IMG/VR virus record: IMGVR_UViG_3300017913_002713
Coordinates: 1-32,032 of that record
Origin: a virus
Lineage: Duplodnaviria > Caudoviricetes
DNA length: 32,032 bases
Reading direction: 5' to 3' (one strand)
Part shown: positions 176 through 8,611 of the stretch, piece by piece
Layout: each line of letters starts with the position of its first letter
Position numbering within the stretch: position 1 is the first letter of the stretch
Position numbers and translations under genes: made by a program
Notes under the pieces: generated by a model
The model's database searches: none
Told to the model about the DNA's origin: nothing
Seen by the model: the letters and a program-made list of their open reading frames with translations, nothing else

Positions 176-481
176 TTAGAACATGAAATCTGAAGCCATT
201 TCTAATGCATCAGACTCTTCTTCAGTGAGAACATTACCACTTACAGCGGCACCGGCAACAACATAGTCATCTACATTGTCAACGCCATATTGCTGTTCCA
301 AGGCTTCTCTAAGTTGATTAGACAACTCGCCATCAGCATCTAATACTGACACAGAATCTGCTACCGTAGTAAGCTGGAATCGTGTTTCATCTTCAGAAAC
401 ATCATATTGAGCAAAGACCTCGATACCACCACGAGTAGTAACAACAAAAAGGTCATCGGTTTCAGTCAAATAAGTTTTCAT
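176..481 (-). CDS. Acidic hypothetical protein, 101 aa
   Basis: Strong SD (AGGAG) and its own consensus promoter cassette. Confidence 0.75.
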   Translation of the reverse strand: MKTYLTETDDLFVVTTRGGIEVFAQYDVSEDETRFQLTTVADSVSVLDADGELSNQLREALEQQYGVDNVDDYVVAGAAVSGNVLTEEESDALEMASDFMF

Positions 482-769: not shown

Positions 770-1537
770 ATGATAGAAATTCGTAACTTAGACTGCCTAG
801 AGTTTTTGCGCGGTGTTGACAGCAATAGTGTAGACTATATAAATGTAGATCCCCCTTACAACATAGGATATGATGGAGGAGATGGTTGGGATACGTGGCC
901 GACAGAAGAAGATTATTTAAATTGGTGTAATGAGTGGTTAGTTGAGTGTACGAGAGTACTTAAGCCGGGTAGTATGATATCTGTTTGGGGTACACAAAAG
1001 ACTGACTTATTTTTTAGGCTCAAACTTGAAGTGATGAACCATTTAGTAGGGATGCATAGTCAATCCGCTATTCATTGGTCTTATAATTGGGGCGGTCGTC
1101 CAAGGAATAATTTTGCTCATAAGTTTGAGACTGCTTGGTGTTATTCTAAAGGAAAAGAATTTTATTTTAACCGTGAGGGGCCAGGTGTAGAGGTGGAACG
1201 TAAGATGAAAATGAATTTAAGAACCGGCAAAGAATACACTAATGGTACTATTCCTACTACTATATGGGAAGGGAATTTAACAACTAACTCAAAAGAAGCA
1301 AAGGAGTCTAAATTTCATCCAACTGTGAAGCCTCAGTTCGTATTACAGAGAATGATCAATGCTTATTGTCCTAAGGGTGGATTAGTATTAGACTGCTTTA
1401 GTGGTAGTGGATCAACCGCATTAGCATGTATGAAAAGCGGCATGAATTTTATTGGAAGTGAATTGAGTACGGAGTACTATGAAGCGAGCCTCCAAAGACT
1501 GGAGGCTCATAAAGAAGGGTTAGATGAGTTCTTCTAA
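770..1537 (+). CDS. Beta-class N6-adenine/N4-cytosine DNA methyltransferase
   Basis: DPPY near N-terminus, HPTVKP, DCFSGSGST near C-terminus (beta motif order). Confidence 0.93.
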   Translation: MIEIRNLDCLEFLRGVDSNSVDYINVDPPYNIGYDGGDGWDTWPTEEDYLNWCNEWLVECTRVLKPGSMISVWGTQKTDLFFRLKLEVMNHLVGMHSQSAIHWSYNWGGRPRNNFAHKFETAWCYSKGKEFYFNREGPGVEVERKMKMNLRTGKEYTNGTIPTTIWEGNLTTNSKEAKESKFHPTVKPQFVLQRMINAYCPKGGLVLDCFSGSGSTALACMKSGMNFIGSELSTEYYEASLQRLEAHKEGLDEFF

Positions 1538-2101: not shown

Positions 2102-2210
2102 AATGTTGATCTCCTTGATCAGTTGGTTTCTTCAGTGTATGTGTATATAATAACAGAACTTTACCCAAAAGTCAAGCAAAATATGAAGGAAAAAATGGTA
2201 ATATTACCAT
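2102..2210 (-). promoter_or_regulatory. Promoter cassette copy 2
   Basis: Palindrome 2195-2210; TTGACT 2175-2170; 17 bp; TGn-TATTAT 2155-2147; TGATC-AAGGA-GATCA SD hairpin. Confidence 0.9.
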
Positions 2211-2756
2211 CTACACAAATTCAAACAAATCGTGTCCAAATGTGTCTGGAATGACTGTAATGGTGAAATCTTCATTTACATATTCATGAGAATAACACAC
2301 TCTGTCCATATGTTTATCTAACAACTCACGAGACATCTTTTTAGACGGGGAAGTAACATAATCTTTTCTATCCATTTTGTTCTTACTCGTCGCCTTCCAG
2401 TTGTCAGATTTTTCACGATAACCACCCAAGCGAGGATGAGAAGTTTTTGAGAAATATCGCTTTCCTCTTTGTAGATGTATTTGAGCCACCGCTTCACTGA
2501 CCCTCACACCTATTCCTAATCCTTGATATTCTGGTAGGACAACTACCCTATGTTCTCGCCAAGCATTTTTCATACTTGGATAGGGACTAGGTAATGGCAA
2601 ACTAGAAGCGAACCCTACGGGTATTCCTTCCCAAATTACTATCCAACAATGTGCCGCTTTGTTTATTTCTGAACTTAGATAGTGATGGATACTGAACATT
2701 GACCAGGCCGTTGGCGAACAAGGAAGGATTTCCAATTCAACGTCTGGCCTTGGGGC
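2211..2756 (-). CDS. GNAT acyltransferase domain (Mom-like), probably the -1 frame part of a fusion with the upstream ATPase
   Basis: HHYL motif; RVVVLPEYQGLGIG acetyl-CoA motif A; no SD before the TTG at 2735; frame open up to TGA at 2787-2789. Confidence 0.8.
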   Translation of the reverse strand, partial: APRPDVELEILPCSPTAWSMFSIHHYLSSEINKAAHCWIVIWEGIPVGFASSLPLPSPYPSMKNAWREHRVVVLPEYQGLGIGVRVSEAVAQIHLQRGKRYFSKTSHPRLGGYREKSDNWKATSKNKMDRKDYVTSPSKKMSRELLDKHMDRVCYSHEYVNEDFTITVIPDTFGHDLFEFV

Positions 2757-3319
2757 TTTCCCACAGAAAGTTTCCCCGTATCTGTATCAAATACCCAATC
2801 AGGTTGTAACCATTCAATAATGTCTCTATGACAGGATGAGAATACTAAACCTTTTAGATCTTTTTTATCAACATATCTTCGAATGGCAACAGAACAACTT
2901 TTGGCAACAGCCCTATCAACTACTGAAGTGAACTCATCAACTACAGCGTTATCTTTGAGTCTCATTGCCAAGTCTGCTCTAAACTTTTGACCAGTAGATA
3001 ATACATGTTGAGGTTTCATCCAATCAGGAATAGAAGAAAACCCAACGGCTGATAACCTATCGATAGCATCATCAGATGATTCAAAGTGAGAACAAATAGC
3101 CATATCAGGATTCCATGCAGGAATTTCTTCCTCCCCAAACTCAGAGAGTAAAGTAGATTTTCCCGACCCTGAAGATCCCACGATAAGACCAATCCTGAAA
3201 TCTTCTGGAAGGTCAGGTTTATCGTAGGGTTTGAAGAAAGATTCCCCAGTAAATTCATAATCAAAATTAGTGGAAATCTCATCAGTGATTGAGTCTAACT
3301 TGACCGTGATACTTTTCAT
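2675..3319 (-). CDS. Soluble ABC-type ATPase, 214 aa if unshifted
   Basis: Walker A GSSGSGKS, signature LSTGQ, Walker B VVDEF, H-loop SCH. Start moved to ATG 3319 (MKSITVK), 1 nt after the upstream stop. Confidence 0.88.
   Translation of the reverse strand: MKSITVKLDSITDEISTNFDYEFTGESFFKPYDKPDLPEDFRIGLIVGSSGSGKSTLLSEFGEEEIPAWNPDMAICSHFESSDDAIDRLSAVGFSSIPDWMKPQHVLSTGQKFRADLAMRLKDNAVVDEFTSVVDRAVAKSCSVAIRRYVDKKDLKGLVFSSCHRDIIEWLQPDWVFDTDTGKLSVGKPQGQTLNWKSFLVRQRPGQCSVSITI
2703..2762 (-). other. Candidate programmed -1 ribosomal frameshift signal
   Basis: In-frame G GGA AAG (2762-2756), 5 nt spacer, stem AGGCC/GGCCT plus GTTG/CAAC with inner GGAA/TTCC hairpin. Confidence 0.75.
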
Positions 3320-3440: not shown

Positions 3441-3533
3441 ATTTCGATCTCCTGATCAATTTCTCAACTTTATGTATACTATTATACAGATATTTCAGAA
3501 AAAGTCAATAGATAAAAGTGTGAATATGTCACA
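3441..3533 (-). promoter_or_regulatory. Promoter cassette copy 3
   Basis: TGTGA-N5-TCACA 3519-3533; TTGACT 3508-3503; 16 bp; TATAAT 3486-3481; TTGATC-AGGA-GATCGA SD hairpin; shares tttctcaactttatg with copy 1. Confidence 0.85.
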
Positions 3534-4337: not shown

Positions 4338-4931
4338 TTAATCCCGTTGAGTAATAATCTCGTCAATAAGTCCATAATCCAACGCTTCTTGGGCAGACAT
4401 AAATGTATCACGATCCATATCACGCTCAAACTCTTCATAAGTTTTACCTTTTGAATTATGTTTGACATAAAGTTCAGTCAATGTTTTCTTGATGTGCATG
4501 ATCTCTTTGTATGAAATCTCAATATCAGATGCCATACCACGAGCACCACCAGATGGTTGGTGAATCATATGTCGAGCGTAAGGCAACATAAATCGTTTAC
4601 CAGCGGCACCAGATTGTGCCAAGAATGATCCCATTGAACATGCTTGCCCGATAACAATCGTTTTAATATCAGGTTTGATAAACTGCATTGTATCGTAGAT
4701 TGCCATTCCAGCGGTTACTGATCCTCCAGGGGAGTTGATGTAAAGATAGATATCTGATTCAGGATCTTCTGATTCCAAGAATAAAAGTTGGGCAACGATA
4801 AGATTTGCCATTTGATCATGAACTTCGCCTTCCAAAAGAATAACACGATCTTTCAGTAGACGAGAATAGATATCATATGAACGCTCACCACGAGATGTTT
4901 GTTCTAAAACGACTGGTACTAGATTTGGCAT
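4338..4931 (-). CDS. clpP: ATP-dependent Clp protease proteolytic subunit
   Basis: [22 protein letters not shown] (Ser), MIHQP (His), DRD (Asp). Confidence 0.97.
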
Positions 4932-4963
4932 ATTTTTTCCTCTTTGTGTGTGAATATCTATCT

Positions 4964-5002
4964 ATTATACACTAACTGAAAAAATAAATCAAGCACTTTG
5001 GG
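4964..5002 (-). promoter_or_regulatory. sigma70-type promoter of clpP
   Basis: TTGATT 4992-4987, 17 bp, TATAAT 4969-4964; CCCAAAG box 3 nt upstream of -35. Confidence 0.7.
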
Positions 5003-5044
5003 AAACAAACTAAATAGTCGTATATTAGAAAAAAGGAGAAAAAT

Positions 5045-5458
5045 ATGGAATTTCTAATCTTAGCTGTTGTTGTATTAGGTGGTGCCGCTTTTTGGTGGTA
5101 CAATCGTGATGCCAAATCATTGGATATCGATTCAGATGGTGACGTAGATTTGGACGATGTAGTAGAAGCCGCTGAAAATGTTTCTGAAGGTGTCAAGGAA
5201 GATGCCGCTAAAGTAGAAGAAGCTGTTGAAGAAGTAGTTGAAGCTGTTGAAGAAGTAGTTGAAGCTGTTGCAAGTGCTGTTGAAGATGCCGCTACTGCTG
5301 TAGCAGAATCTGCCGCTAAAGTAAATAAACCTACTGCTGAAGAGCTAAACAAATTGACTAAAGTTCAGATTGAAGAAAAGGGTCGTGCTTACGGTGTTGA
5401 ATTAGATCGTCGTAAAAAGAAAGAAGCAATGATTGCGGATTTACTTAGTAAGATCTAA
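5045..5458 (+). CDS. Membrane-anchored acidic protein with C-terminal HeH/Rho-N-like helix pair
   Basis: N-terminal TM, DIDSDGDVDLDD loop, E/A/V repeats, LTKVQIEEKGRAYGVELDRRKKK tail; AAGGAG SD. Confidence 0.75.
   Translation: MEFLILAVVVLGGAAFWWYNRDAKSLDIDSDGDVDLDDVVEAAENVSEGVKEDAAKVEEAVEEVVEAVEEVVEAVASAVEDAATAVAESAAKVNKPTAEELNKLTKVQIEEKGRAYGVELDRRKKKEAMIADLLSKI
5219..5270 (+). repeat. 21-bp coding tandem repeat, about 2.5 copies
   Basis: GAAGCTGTTGAAGAAGTAGTT at 5219 and 5240, partial at 5261. Confidence 0.9.
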
Positions 5459-6153
5459 TGAACGAAATAGGCTTTGATTTCATCAGTGATCTTTATCTAG
5501 GACCCAATAGTGAGTTCAATTGGGAAGATAAGGCCACTAGCCTTTATTGTATTGTAGCGGGAAATGTCAGCCACGATATCAATACACTGATGAAAACCAT
5601 GGCTACTTTATCCAGATATTATCAACATATTTTTTATGTTCCTGGTACATTGGAATATGATCAACTAGAAGAATATGTTGATCTGAGAACTGATGAAATA
5701 GTAAAAGCCTTATCGTTTATTCCAAACGTAGGTGTATTACATCAAGATGTTGTATTGATTGATGGTATCGCTCTTATTGGAATCAATGGGTGGGCAAATA
5801 CACACTTGAATGAATTCATAACTGATAGTATGTATCGTATTCAAGATGCTGGTTATTTGGCTAAATGTATTACAAAACTTCAACTACATATTGATGTTAA
5901 AAAAATAATCGTTGTTTCAAATGCTGTTCCTAATAAAGATTTGTATTTCTCAGAAGCACCTGAATATGCTAAACTTCAGTGGGATTTATTGAGAACTATT
6001 GAAGAATATGACACAGAAAAGAAAATGTGTACATGGTTATATGGAACTTATGAAAAGGGTGTAGATACGGTTATTGATGATATACATTACATCAATAACC
6101 CACACCCCCAAGATTCACCTTATTGGCCGAAACGAATTACAATATCAATGTAA
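5458..6153 (+). CDS. Degenerate calcineurin-like metallophosphoesterase
   Basis: Motif scaffold ISDLY / VAGNV / VPGTLEY / VSNAVP / LYGTY in the expected order, with the His ligands replaced. Confidence 0.7.
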   Translation: MNEIGFDFISDLYLGPNSEFNWEDKATSLYCIVAGNVSHDINTLMKTMATLSRYYQHIFYVPGTLEYDQLEEYVDLRTDEIVKALSFIPNVGVLHQDVVLIDGIALIGINGWANTHLNEFITDSMYRIQDAGYLAKCITKLQLHIDVKKIIVVSNAVPNKDLYFSEAPEYAKLQWDLLRTIEEYDTEKKMCTWLYGTYEKGVDTVIDDIHYINNPHPQDSPYWPKRITISM

Positions 6154-6459
6154 TTCTGCTTCTACTTTTACTTGTAATGGATAACCTTGTGCCCGAGCAT
6201 CAAGGGTAACTTCTACACCTTTTTGTTCGGCAATTTCGTAAGGTAGGACAGCAACTACTGCACTTCCTTTTTCATGGATATCAACGGTTAGCTGAGTAGC
6301 TGTGTCGATATTGTAGTGGAAGTAATCAACTAGAGAATTCACTACGAAATCCATAGTCGTTGCTTCATCGTTTATATAAACGATTTTGTACAGTGGTGGC
6401 TCTTTCAATGAAACATTTGGTTTAATTTTTTGTTCTGTACCTACATTGGCTTTAGCCAT
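6145..6459 (-). CDS. clpS: ClpS N-degron adaptor
   Basis: PPLYKIVYINDEATTMDFV, IHEKGSAVV, EIAEQK, YPLQ. Confidence 0.93.
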   Translation of the reverse strand: MAKANVGTEQKIKPNVSLKEPPLYKIVYINDEATTMDFVVNSLVDYFHYNIDTATQLTVDIHEKGSAVVAVLPYEIAEQKGVEVTLDARAQGYPLQVKVEAELH

Positions 6460-6524
6460 AATTTACATCTCCTTGAGTAAGTAGCCCACAGTTTCCCATG
6501 GGCTTTATTGTATTTAGTATTATA

Positions 6525-6980
6525 TCAAGATATTACTGTAATATCAATGGTTTTTGGTAACAATTCTTCAGGAACTTCACGCTTTAGGTGAATATGAAGA
6601 ATACCTAATTCAAGGCATGCACTATCTACTTCTACATGATCTGCCAGTGTAAATTCACGATTGAAATTACGAGCGGCTAAACCACGATGTAGATACGTTA
6701 CCTCTTCCTCGTCTTCAGATTTAGGACTAGTCCCTTCAATCTTTAGAATATTCTTATCTTTAGTGATAGAAAGATTTTCCATTGCAAAACCAGCCACAGC
6801 TAGAGAAATCACATACTCATCTTCAGATTTCTGAACAATATTGTATGGTGGATAACCGCCAGATGTAGTACTATTGGCAAATTGTCTTTCTAGTTCATTA
6901 AAGATACGATCAAAGCCTACAGTGGCTTTTTGGAAGGTTGGTAAATCAAGTGTAGATACACGAAGTTGTTTGCTTGTCAT
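6525..6980 (-). CDS. Small heat shock protein, Hsp20/IbpA type
   Basis: VGFDRIF, YPPYNI, LAVAGF, YLHRGLAARNF. Confidence 0.95.
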   Translation of the reverse strand: MTSKQLRVSTLDLPTFQKATVGFDRIFNELERQFANSTTSGGYPPYNIVQKSEDEYVISLAVAGFAMENLSITKDKNILKIEGTSPKSEDEEEVTYLHRGLAARNFNREFTLADHVEVDSACLELGILHIHLKREVPEELLPKTIDITVIS

Positions 6981-7033
6981 AATATTCTCCTTTTGTTAAG
7001 CAAGATAATATGTAAACCCTTACGGCGTTTACA
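6981..7033 (-). promoter_or_regulatory. ROSE-like RNA thermometer in hsp20 leader
   Basis: UCUUGCU (7005-6999) pairs with AGGAGA (6991-6986) with a bulged G; preceded by a GUAA-loop hairpin 7033-7011. Confidence 0.7.
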
Positions 7034-7046
7034 GTAGTATTTATCA

Positions 7047-7340
7047 TTAGGCGATGACAGAAATAATTTGATCTTGTTTGATCATCAATACATCTTCACC
7101 TTCAGGACCCATCTTTTCCATTGGAACACCGGCACCCTTGATATACACTACATTTTGTCCAGGAATCAAAGACAGTGGACTAATACTACCATCCTCTTCT
7201 TCCTTTCCGGGACCTACTGCTAGTACAGTCCCAGATACAGGTGGGGCATCTACTGTCCCCGGTAGTACGATACCTCCATCAGTCATTTCTGGTTCATCAT
7301 CTGGAAGTAATACTACATAATCAAACATTGGCTTCAACAT
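7047..7340 (-). CDS. groES: Co-chaperonin GroES/Cpn10
   Basis: LKPMFDYVV, TDGGIVLP, GTVLAVGPG. Confidence 0.9.
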   Translation of the reverse strand: MLKPMFDYVVLLPDDEPEMTDGGIVLPGTVDAPPVSGTVLAVGPGKEEEDGSISPLSLIPGQNVVYIKGAGVPMEKMGPEGEDVLMIKQDQIISVIA

Positions 7341-7367
7341 TAATAATCTCCTTTGTTAATATTGCCT

Positions 7368-7405
7368 ATTATACTAGATTTTTAGAAAAAGTCAAGTGTT
7401 TTGGG
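7368..7405 (-). promoter_or_regulatory. sigma70-type promoter of groES
   Basis: TTGACT 7395-7390, 16 bp, TATAAT 7373-7368; CCCAAAA box 3 nt upstream. Confidence 0.75.
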
Positions 7406-8611
7406 TTAAATTATTTCTTTGGGATTATCTACTAATTCTTTAGTGATAATCAAAGTCGTTATTTCTTTTTCACGGTAATCACCTGAGTAGTACATGTGTG
7501 GCATCAGTACTCTCTCAATTTCGCTATGTAATCCTCTCGCCCCAGTTTTCATATCAATACAATTTTGTGCCATTTGTTTGATAGCTTCCTCTTCAAATTC
7601 TAATTTGATAGAGTCAATAGAGAATAAATGTGTATATTGTTCTATGAAGTTATCTTTAATCTCAGTGAGAATTCTAACCATCTCATCTAATGATAACTCC
7701 TGTAATGTCACTGTCGATGTAAATCTACCAATAAACTCTGGAATCATTCCAAACTTTGTCAAATCTTCCGGTGCTACTTTTTCAATATCGACGGGTGCAT
7801 TTTTTCCTACTACTGATGAACCAAAACCAATAGTTGTTCCTTGTGTTCTAGTTCTCAAAATATTTTCTAATCCTACAAAAGCGCCACCAGCAATAAACAA
7901 TATGTTTTTAGTGTCTACTTCTACCATATCACCTTGTGGATTCTTTCGCTTTCCTGCTGTTGGTACACGACATACTGTGCCTTCAACTATCTTCAATAAT
8001 GCTTGTTGTACACCTTCACCAGATACATCTCTAGTGATAGATGAACTTTCACTTTTACGAGCGATCTTATCAATCTCATCGATAAACACGATGCCTCGCT
8101 GTGCTAACTCAACATCATTATCTGCTTTTGCCAATAATGTAGATATCATCGATTCAACATCATCACCTACATATCCCGCTTCTGTTAGACTTGTGGCATC
8201 GGCAACTACAAATGGTACATCTAGATAACGAGCAACAGTTTTAGCCAACATTGTTTTACCTGATCCAGTAGGACCAACTAACAATACATTTCCTTTTTGA
8301 ATATCAAGATTTTCTGGTGGATGATGAATTCTTTTGTAATGATTGGCAATAGCGACAGCCAGAATCTTCTTGGCGTTTGATTGACCAATTACTCGACCAT
8401 CTAAATAATTGTTGATGTTTTTAGGATTGAATTTAGATTCGTCAAATTTTGGTCCCTGTGTTTCACTAGGCAAATCTTCAGTGAGGATTAAATCATTACA
8501 GAGTTCTACACAATCACTACAGATCGAAACTCCTTCACTAACAATTAATTTGCCTACTTGATCTTTATGGCTATTGCAAAAAGAACACGTTTCTTGATAC
8601 ATCTCTTTCAT
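7406..8611 (-). CDS. clpX: ClpX AAA+ unfoldase
   Basis: CSFC..CSDC zinc domain, GPTGSGKT, GYVG, IDEIDK, RDVSGEGVQQALLK, IGF loop, GARGL. Confidence 0.97.
   Translation of the reverse strand: MKEMYQETCSFCNSHKDQVGKLIVSEGVSICSDCVELCNDLILTEDLPSETQGPKFDESKFNPKNINNYLDGRVIGQSNAKKILAVAIANHYKRIHHPPENLDIQKGNVLLVGPTGSGKTMLAKTVARYLDVPFVVADATSLTEAGYVGDDVESMISTLLAKADNDVELAQRGIVFIDEIDKIARKSESSSITRDVSGEGVQQALLKIVEGTVCRVPTAGKRKNPQGDMVEVDTKNILFIAGGAFVGLENILRTRTQGTTIGFGSSVVGKNAPVDIEKVAPEDLTKFGMIPEFIGRFTSTVTLQELSLDEMVRILTEIKDNFIEQYTHLFSIDSIKLEFEEEAIKQMAQNCIDMKTGARGLHSEIERVLMPHMYYSGDYREKEITTLIITKELVDNPKEII

Follow-up and report, generated by a model that had tools for sequence, protein, structure and literature searches.

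How does a phage gene whose two enzymatic domains lie in different reading frames deliver both of them, and why would it be built in this way? The question is raised by a minus-strand locus at positions 2211 to 3319 of the IMG/VR virus record IMGVR_UViG_3300017913_002713 (Duplodnaviria; Caudoviricetes), of which we analysed the stretch from 1 to 32,032, hereafter the window. There, an open reading frame (ORF) for an ABC ATPase overlaps a second frame for a GNAT acyltransferase. Our overall best explanation, to which we assign a probability of roughly 0.7, is that -1 recoding in the window is one version of a family-wide design for making two products. Ribosomes slipping -1 at a G_GGA_AAG heptamer would produce a fusion of 369 residues, and those that do not slip a 214-residue ATPase; in most relatives with an intact fused gene, a cassette of the release factor 2 (RF2) type, consisting of a Shine-Dalgarno (SD) sequence, 3 nt, a slippery P-site codon and a slow sense codon, would divert ribosomes into the same short tail.

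The ATPase ORF (3319-2675) by itself encodes the 214-residue unshifted product. The GNAT frame, which is -1 relative to it, opens at 2786, 8 codons ahead of the heptamer, and runs for 191 codons to its end at 2211; it would contribute 181 residues once shifted, for a predicted fusion of 188 + 181 = 369 residues. The coordinates, the in-frame heptamer, the 8-codon lead and both product lengths had been given in a preliminary description of this DNA and were all verified. One 357-position profile, phrog_11143, covers the two halves in order, with the ATPase half matching positions 9-195 (E 3e-61, profile search), and the family-conserved residues are kept in both, at 68 of 71 positions in the ATPase and 48 of 52 aligned columns in the GNAT domain, a count that sets apart 14 further columns in which gaps were caused by one misplaced residue. 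A scan of NCBIfam gave ABC matches below threshold only and none for the GNAT domain. When solved structures were searched by sequence, using an alignment of the fused members, the best 60 of 140 matches were all ABC proteins.

Could the split simply be a one-base assembly error? The junction is identical in the IMG/VR contig L001 and in two Logan contigs, X1 (depth 13, 2431-3100) and X2 (depth 8, 2600-2900), which have 0 differences and 0 gaps and which come from one study, possibly the window's source study. X8, from another study, spans 2730-2900 with 1 substitution and no gap, reaching only 26 nt past the heptamer on its short side against the 31 nt of our bridging rule. This evidence comes from assembled contigs, not raw reads, and the junction was covered in three of eight runs; within these contigs, L001, X1, X2 and X8, an indel at the junction is excluded. 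The site has no long homopolymer and its difference from the fused relatives is not a single base, which makes an assembly error extremely improbable. All six listed strain differences are synonymous, two of them in the GNAT frame.

The sequence around the heptamer is that of a plausible -1 site. GGGAAAG occurs once in the 32 kb, both strands counted. The GGGG that the preliminary description had located 11 nt upstream is there and is weakly SD-like, its anti-SD energy being among the best 3% of positions within this ATPase. In the available text of PMC5009743, SD elements of -1 frameshift sites are spaced 9-14 nt upstream, and G_GGA_AAG is listed both as shift-prone in E. coli and as a known G-T site of HCTV-5. 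The proposed 3' stem does begin 5 nt downstream, but its strength is borderline, with z-scores of -1.3 to -2.0 in windows of 52-70 nt, +0.5 to +0.6 at 40-48 nt and -1.06 at 76 nt; nor is a stem general among -1 relatives, z falling below -2 in only 6 of the 19 that bear a heptamer. Slippage by RNA polymerase is unlikely here because the site is without a long homopolymer. On this sequence evidence, ribosomes very probably slip -1 at G_GGA_AAG, and the predicted transframe peptide would be APRPDVELEILPCSPTAWSMFSIHHYLSSEINK, of which the first seven residues are encoded ahead of the TTG at 2735.

Comparison with relatives points the same way. The comparison covered 359 loci, taken from GenBank phages and from viral, metagenome and genome contigs, among them 306 in-frame fusions, 31 with the -1 layout, 9 with a +1 split and 13 lacking a domain, which were dropped. 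Clustering at 90% ATPase identity left 176 representatives (149 fused, 23 with the -1 layout, 4 with a +1 split). An in-frame X_XXY_YYZ heptamer is present in the overlap of 19 of the 23 -1 representatives, where 2.1 would be expected, and in 4 of the 149 fused controls. Four of the 19 heptamers are mixed in composition, namely G_GGA_AAG in the window, A_AAT_TTT twice and A_AAG_GGC, and both A_AAT_TTT loci have a strong upstream SD and a stable stem. The short products of all 23 stop at the same place, 22 of them ending I-T/I-I. A programmed -1 shift yielding ATPase-only and ATPase-GNAT products, as had been proposed for the window, is thus predicted from sequence and well supported by the relatives. 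The preliminary description had further asked whether homologues are fused in-frame or keep a heptamer. The answer is both, and most of the fused ones (134 of 149) carry a +1 cassette instead.

A broken copy, in which the fusion was inactivated when the linker lost a net 4 nt and the heptamer is there by chance, would also leave the domains in two frames. The window junction is indeed 4 nt shorter than that of the near fused relatives (85 vs 89 letters), and apparent one-base indels occur in loci L281, L301 and L359. G_GGA_AAG is moreover a singleton, found at no other locus by a search of viral contigs with the window-type DNA pattern or among the collected relatives; since in-frame X_XXY_YYZ heptamers stand at 28 of the 6828 codons of 29 window ORFs, the chance of any heptamer in the 16-codon overlap is about 6%. 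However, the GNAT frame is intact over its 191 codons, with its conserved columns kept and both listed differences in it synonymous. The ancestral SD cassette is gone, its position is taken by a shift-prone heptamer that is suitably spaced from an SD-like element, and the -1 layout with heptamers recurs in 18 other representatives. Taken together, we consider decay of the gene improbable. As an observation apart, L281, L301, L359 and L152 show one-base changes in the cassette or run (in L152, upstream of it), which may be errors, decay or steps between layouts.

Alternatively, the window could hold two separately initiated genes, with the GNAT domain translated from TTG 2735 or ATG 2699 by translational coupling. 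Both candidate starts do lie in the GNAT frame, and the copies of P335, Oenococcus, Streptococcus and TR-TP1 are entered in GenBank as two genes each. At L084 and L089, the domains are split and the GNAT domain has an apparent TTG start of its own, an arrangement that weighs against the family-wide two-product reading. The statement in the preliminary description that the GNAT frame has no SD of its own is true (anti-SD -2.9 for TTG 2735 and -2.1 for ATG 2699) but makes weak evidence, as 7 of 13 real gene starts tested score -3.3 or weaker. More specific objections come from the protein and its layout. A start at 2735 would cut into the first GNAT strand and lose an R-P motif that at least 90% of 111 fused homologues share and that is retained in the split L084 group; the ATPase stop at 2675 is downstream of both starts; and in the GenBank cases GNAT homology begins before the annotated start. 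We regard separate initiation in the window as improbable too, by a hair more so than decay. Some of these loci deserve mention in their own right. In the L084-L090 split, the GNAT domain lies in the +1 frame with an apparent TTG start, an SD and the R-P motif, a third way of separating the domains. L266, L268 and L278 (Oenococcus, P335 and Streptococcus phages) and L267 are annotated as two genes, with GNAT homology that starts ahead of the annotated start; the sequence GTT TTT CNA TNC CCC CAC, without a canonical heptamer, is common to L268 and L278.

What, then, of the relatives in which both domains lie in one intact ORF? A strict in-frame NGG-RGG motif is found in the linker of 134 of the 149 fused representatives, as compared to 45 of 48,950 other codon positions, and is followed by 3 nt, a P-site codon and then mostly a rare arginine codon. 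Among the 136 with an SD-like match, the P-site codon is CTT in 82, GAA in 21, GTT in 19, CAT in 5, CAA in 3 and GAT in 2, and the A-site codon encodes arginine in 99 and is a stop codon in none. The residues under the SD vary (RG, RR, WR, GR, WG) and the nucleotides stay constant. Synonymous choice in these 136 is correspondingly skewed: glycine is GGG in 80/80 (background 17%), arginine at that same position AGG in 54/54 (9%), leucine at the P codon CTT in 82/83 (14%) and valine GTT in 19/20 (26%). The base after the P codon fits re-pairing in the +1 frame, with T followed by C or T in 96 of 109 and A by A in 25 of 25. For comparison, the RF2 signal as described in the available text of PMC5009743 is GG_GGG or GG_AGG, a 3-nt spacing and CUU_U, with slow A-site codons favouring +1 slips.

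A +1 slip at the cassette would lead into the frame corresponding to the window's unshifted tail, and this hidden frame appears to be maintained. It is open up to HHY in 134/134 genes, against 88.4 expected from synonymous resampling (a control region gave 43 vs 55.3 expected), and stops right at the HHYL codons, at the window's I-x-I stop, in 90/134 (60.3 expected). The codons that spell I-x-I in the other frame are strongly biased, histidine being CAT in 122/129 and tyrosine TAT in 129/134, vs about 51%. Because the HHYL pattern is unmatched in them, 15 of the 149 fused genes and, of the 23 representatives with the -1 layout, 16 are not part of this test. The cassette is present in the cultured Arthrobacter phage EastWest and Rhodococcus phage Jace. 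From these sequence patterns, it is quite probable that having two products is a selected property of the whole phrog_11143 family, achieved mostly by this mirror +1 design.

The cassette could instead serve as a pause for domain folding, an RNA structure or an internal start, with the -1 shift in the window being real. It sits at a domain boundary, where pausing would be useful, its A site is a sense codon, unlike that of prfB, its SD bases have a high predicted pairing on average (0.5-0.8), and CTT-CGG forms C-UUCG-G in 36/134; the tetraloop reading that this last pattern invites was tested and is unsupported. No in-frame ATG, GTG or TTG lies 3-12 nt from the SD in any of the 134 genes, however, and at the cassette there is neither an excess of folding (mean z -0.39) nor SD-to-Pro covariation. 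Pausing alone would also leave the fixed 3-nt spacing, the choice of CTT, GTT or GAA, the fourth-base pattern and the open +1 frame with its shared stop unexplained, and we consider this family of alternatives unlikely, if less so than decay or separate initiation in the window. We also dropped the idea of a -2 slip on GGGGG, since AGG takes that position in 54 of 136. Three further observations concern single genes. The linker of L320 contains two tandem SD-spacer-codon cassettes; L279 (Pseudoalteromonas phage SL25) is a fused gene with a cassette and no annotated coding sequence in its GenBank record; and in the window an in-frame GGG AAA CTT T at 2780-2766 (minus strand), four codons before the heptamer, forms a weak prfB-like arrangement sharing the candidate-stimulator GGGG, at which a +1 slip would meet a stop within about ten codons.

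How the two layouts are related can be read from the trees, which were unrooted, so that the direction of change is inferred from nesting. The window gene nests among +1-type fused genes, its GTG GGA AAG aligning with GTC GGA AGG of near relatives, and we infer that its lineage replaced a +1 cassette by a -1 site. The approximately unbiased test rejects one common origin for all -1 forms (p 3e-79), and the starred tree branches force at least 3 layout changes. L152 was left out of the large tree, and alignment A3 was made without L239, L266, L267, L268, L278, L281 and L152.

Several observations weigh against the two-product reading and limit the probability given at the outset. The loci sampled were the 80 top matches of each search and do not represent a random draw from the roughly 5,800 homologues. 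In the -1 relatives, runs of A or T account for 15 of the 19 heptamers, and at these runs transcriptional slippage or homopolymer errors are possible, and 4 of the 23 representatives have no heptamer; the window's own stem ranks 25th of 353 windows in the gene. Among the fused genes, 13 of 149 are without even a loose SD match, CAT_C, GAT_C, GAA_A and CAA_A would be expected to re-pair less well than CTT_T, and the P-codon covariation is pseudoreplicated on the tree, where it reduces to 7 independent pairs, of which 5.3 change the same way and none the opposite way (median p 0.06). A shared origin of the window with L092, L093 and L233, its nearest -1 group, is not rejected (p 0.057). One fixed product ratio is not evident, because the default product would be opposite in the two layouts. 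Finally, translation, slippage rate, ratio, dimer make-up and substrate are deduced from sequence and models only.

If recoding does yield two products, what would they do together? The recoding site is the domain boundary, because both the model of a fused homologue (predicted local distance difference test (pLDDT) 91.3; ABC 1-193, GNAT 197-352) and the fold search place the boundary there. In the model of the short product (pLDDT 85.9) the ABC fold is complete, and pLDDT is below 50 for residues 190-214; folding of this tail onto the ATPase is accordingly unsupported. The tail's invariant glycine would be a by-product of the invariant tryptophan codon of the GNAT frame. Two copies of the ABC domain with ATP gave a dimer score of 0.86 (best control 0.00), with at least 97% of contacts agreeing between runs and pLDDT of at least 85, and the signature residues face Walker A in the model. 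The score counted as a pass is attained by 20 of 30 solved pairs and also by 1 of 23 single chains, and the pass seen here may reflect likeness to solved ABC dimers. The ABC dimer of the preliminary description is thus predicted by modelling as a homodimer. We think it rather likely that the products pair via their shared ABC domain into dimers with zero, one or two GNAT domains, and that recoding limits or tunes the acyltransferase per ATPase dimer. A substoichiometric acyltransferase at a set ratio, as first suggested, does not hold generally, because in most relatives the fusion would be the default and the ATPase-only product the shifted form.

The window protein is a member of the ABC ATPase-coupled GNAT family, phrog_11143, and not Mom. 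Its GNAT domain contains QGLGIG, which we take to be an acyl-CoA-type motif. The label 'Mom-like' applies as far as the GNAT fold is concerned and fails on sequence and profile: there is no detectable similarity to Mu Mom (hhalign probability 0.3, E 0.22; best BLASTP E 0.65), and in fold searches with the whole two-domain model generic GNATs head the lists and Mom is not among the matches listed. Both are GNAT-fold products of phage genes linked to DNA modification. Mom performs a Gly-tRNA-dependent adenine modification and has a helix-turn-helix-like insertion, whereas the window protein has an ABC domain and the QGLGIG motif; the term 'ABC' is absent from the available text of PMC13219725, which describes Mom. 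For the ABC-coupled GNATs, section 3.4.7 of Iyer et al. 2021 (PMC7824862) predicts an uncharacterised acyl modification of a DNA base, separate from Mom. The family appears there as a plain fusion, with no 'frameshift' in the accessible main text, in contrast to the -1 split seen here and the +1 cassette of most fused members.

Is the substrate then phage DNA? Relatives adjoin ParB, formyltransferase, DNA methylase and terminase genes, and the window's fusion, alone of the two products, would end in a peptide (DTFGHDLFEFV) that resembles the C-terminus of the window's family B polymerase. In a post hoc comparison the two tails scored 27, the best of 40 ORF ends (next 17), and 10 of 7241 windows were as high. 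A clamp-binding motif of T4, as given in the accessible part of PMC6212786, resembles the same peptide. Alignment of this polymerase to solved ones did not extend to its last residues (it ended at residue 154 of 200), so that the clamp-motif reading rests on the cited literature. The scanned ORFs of the window include no clamp gene, and two other products have clamp-motif-like C-termini, a DNA methylase (770-1537, plus strand) ending GLDEFF and a small ORF (176-481, minus strand) ending ASDFMF.

An acyltransferase acting on protein, tRNA or a small molecule, with recoding as described, has a good deal in its favour. The closest GNAT folds are small-molecule and protein acetyltransferases (Z 12-13.7, none outstanding), there is no likeness to Mom, the role in DNA modification comes from a prediction, and the early-type promoter described below would fit host takeover equally well. 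Two observations detract from the DNA reading in particular: ParB and formyltransferase neighbours are missing within the window ORFs scanned, and clamp-like tails occur in 9 of 170 relatives by a loose pattern, the motif having been chosen after it was seen. That the enzyme acylates phage DNA close to the replication fork, where the clamp-binding-like tail would dock the fusion alone, is in our view an even bet; a non-DNA substrate is a serious contender, about half as probable as not. We lean slightly towards the wider picture in which the family enforces two products by a shift whose direction flipped several times, the hidden +1 slip could make DNA acylation depend on the supply of arginyl-tRNA in the host, and in the window the shifted product alone would ride the clamp.

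Each element of this scheme has individually known precedents, namely -1 heptamers, dnaX-style two-subunit genes and the RF2 signal; the new elements are an RF2-type cassette with a sense codon, conserved within ORFs that are intact, and a change of slip direction among members of one family. The phage lambda gpG/gpGT gene also uses G_GGA_AAG. Like the window gene, it has a short default product and a minor, C-terminally extended one whose extension adds a binding function; the window gene encodes a non-structural enzyme, and its family uses two slip directions. In the dnaX gene, tau alone carries an extra binding domain, and the shift makes the short form, whereas that in the window would make the long form. 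The dnaX ATPase is a clamp loader and not an ABC protein, and the window's stem is weak, but the E. coli gene likewise combines a long and a short subunit, a heptamer ending A_AAG, a 5' SD-like element and a 3' hairpin (available texts of PMC3711429 and PMC5009743). With prfB, as portrayed in the latter, the fused relatives share the SD spellings GG_GGG and GG_AGG, the 3-nt spacing and mostly the CUU P-site codon. They differ in having a sense codon (Arg in 99/136) and not UGA in the A site, in being without the RF2 autoregulation circuit, and in that the shift would truncate an intact ORF, not complete one; the window uses -1. Our literature search found no report of frameshifting in the ABC-GNAT family, with Iyer 2013, Krishnan 2020 and the supplementary cluster tables of PMC3711429 outside that search; the accessible main text of PMC3711429 contains neither 'acetyltransferase' nor 'ATPase', and PMC12839542, in its available part, deals with a different system.

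The features of the locus are collected in Table 1. A promoter-like site and the 39-residue DUF7230 ORF precede the gene and a palindrome stands at its end, which suggests early expression of the ABC-GNAT gene; the small ORF is likely translationally coupled to the ATPase. Repeated promoter/leader modules at 477-618, 2097-2230 and 3459-3527 (28-42 nt, up to 96% alike), with the 16-nt palindrome also repeated, are likely early-gene cassettes. The window appears to be a portion of a large phage genome and carries genes for a family B polymerase, a ligase, an exonuclease and chaperones; ClpP, ClpS, Hsp20, GroES and ClpX genes are clustered at 4338-8611 on this phage-like contig.

Table 1. Features of the ABC-GNAT locus in window coordinates.
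Feature	Position	Strand	Remarks
Terminator-like 16-nt palindrome and five further T, directly 3' of the GNAT stop	2190..2210	-	no call by terminator scan
GNAT frame	2211..2786	-	PF00583 E 3e-9; phrog_11143 positions 199-352, E 2e-40
C-terminal peptide DTFGHDLFEFV, clamp-binding-like, in predicted fusion only	2214..2246	-	resembles C-terminus of the window's family B polymerase
Complete ABC ATPase ORF with 26-residue tail ending SITI	2675..3319	-	Walker A GSSGSGKS, signature LSTGQ, Walker B AVVDE, SCH switch
Overlapping tail of ATPase-only product	2675..2755	-	predicted disordered; ends at family-wide I-x-I stop overlapping GNAT codons HHYL
Candidate 3' stem-loop AGGCC/GGCCT, 5 nt 3' of heptamer, borderline	2701..2750	-	-14.9 to -17.7 kcal/mol
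Slippery heptamer G_GGA_AAG, predicted -1 site at ABC/GNAT domain boundary	2762-2756	-	in-frame codons GTG GGA AAG
GGGG, weak SD-like element, candidate stimulator, 11 nt 5' of heptamer	2777-2774	-	anti-SD duplex -5.7 kcal/mol
DUF7230 ORF, 39 residues	3321..3440	-	stop 1 nt before ATPase ATG
Sigma70-type promoter-like site TTGACT-16-TATAAT, upstream of unit	3481..3508	-	11/12 consensus matches; similar modules at about 573 and 2175

Finally, we would like to consider what such a design would mean. SD-stimulated +1 frameshifting is known mainly from prfB, where it is driven by a stop codon. If our reading is true, conserved +1 slippage on sense codons would form a second large natural class, spread across phages and prophages of many bacterial groups. 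Because the ORF stays intact, +1 cassettes of this type are invisible to annotation, and their presence here would suggest that further cassettes lie hidden in intact ORFs. A single family that swaps +1 for -1 and still reaches the same two products and the same stop would amount to a natural experiment on the need for the truncated subunit. For this predicted DNA-modification system, it follows that a codon-optimised fusion expressed alone may miss a subunit.

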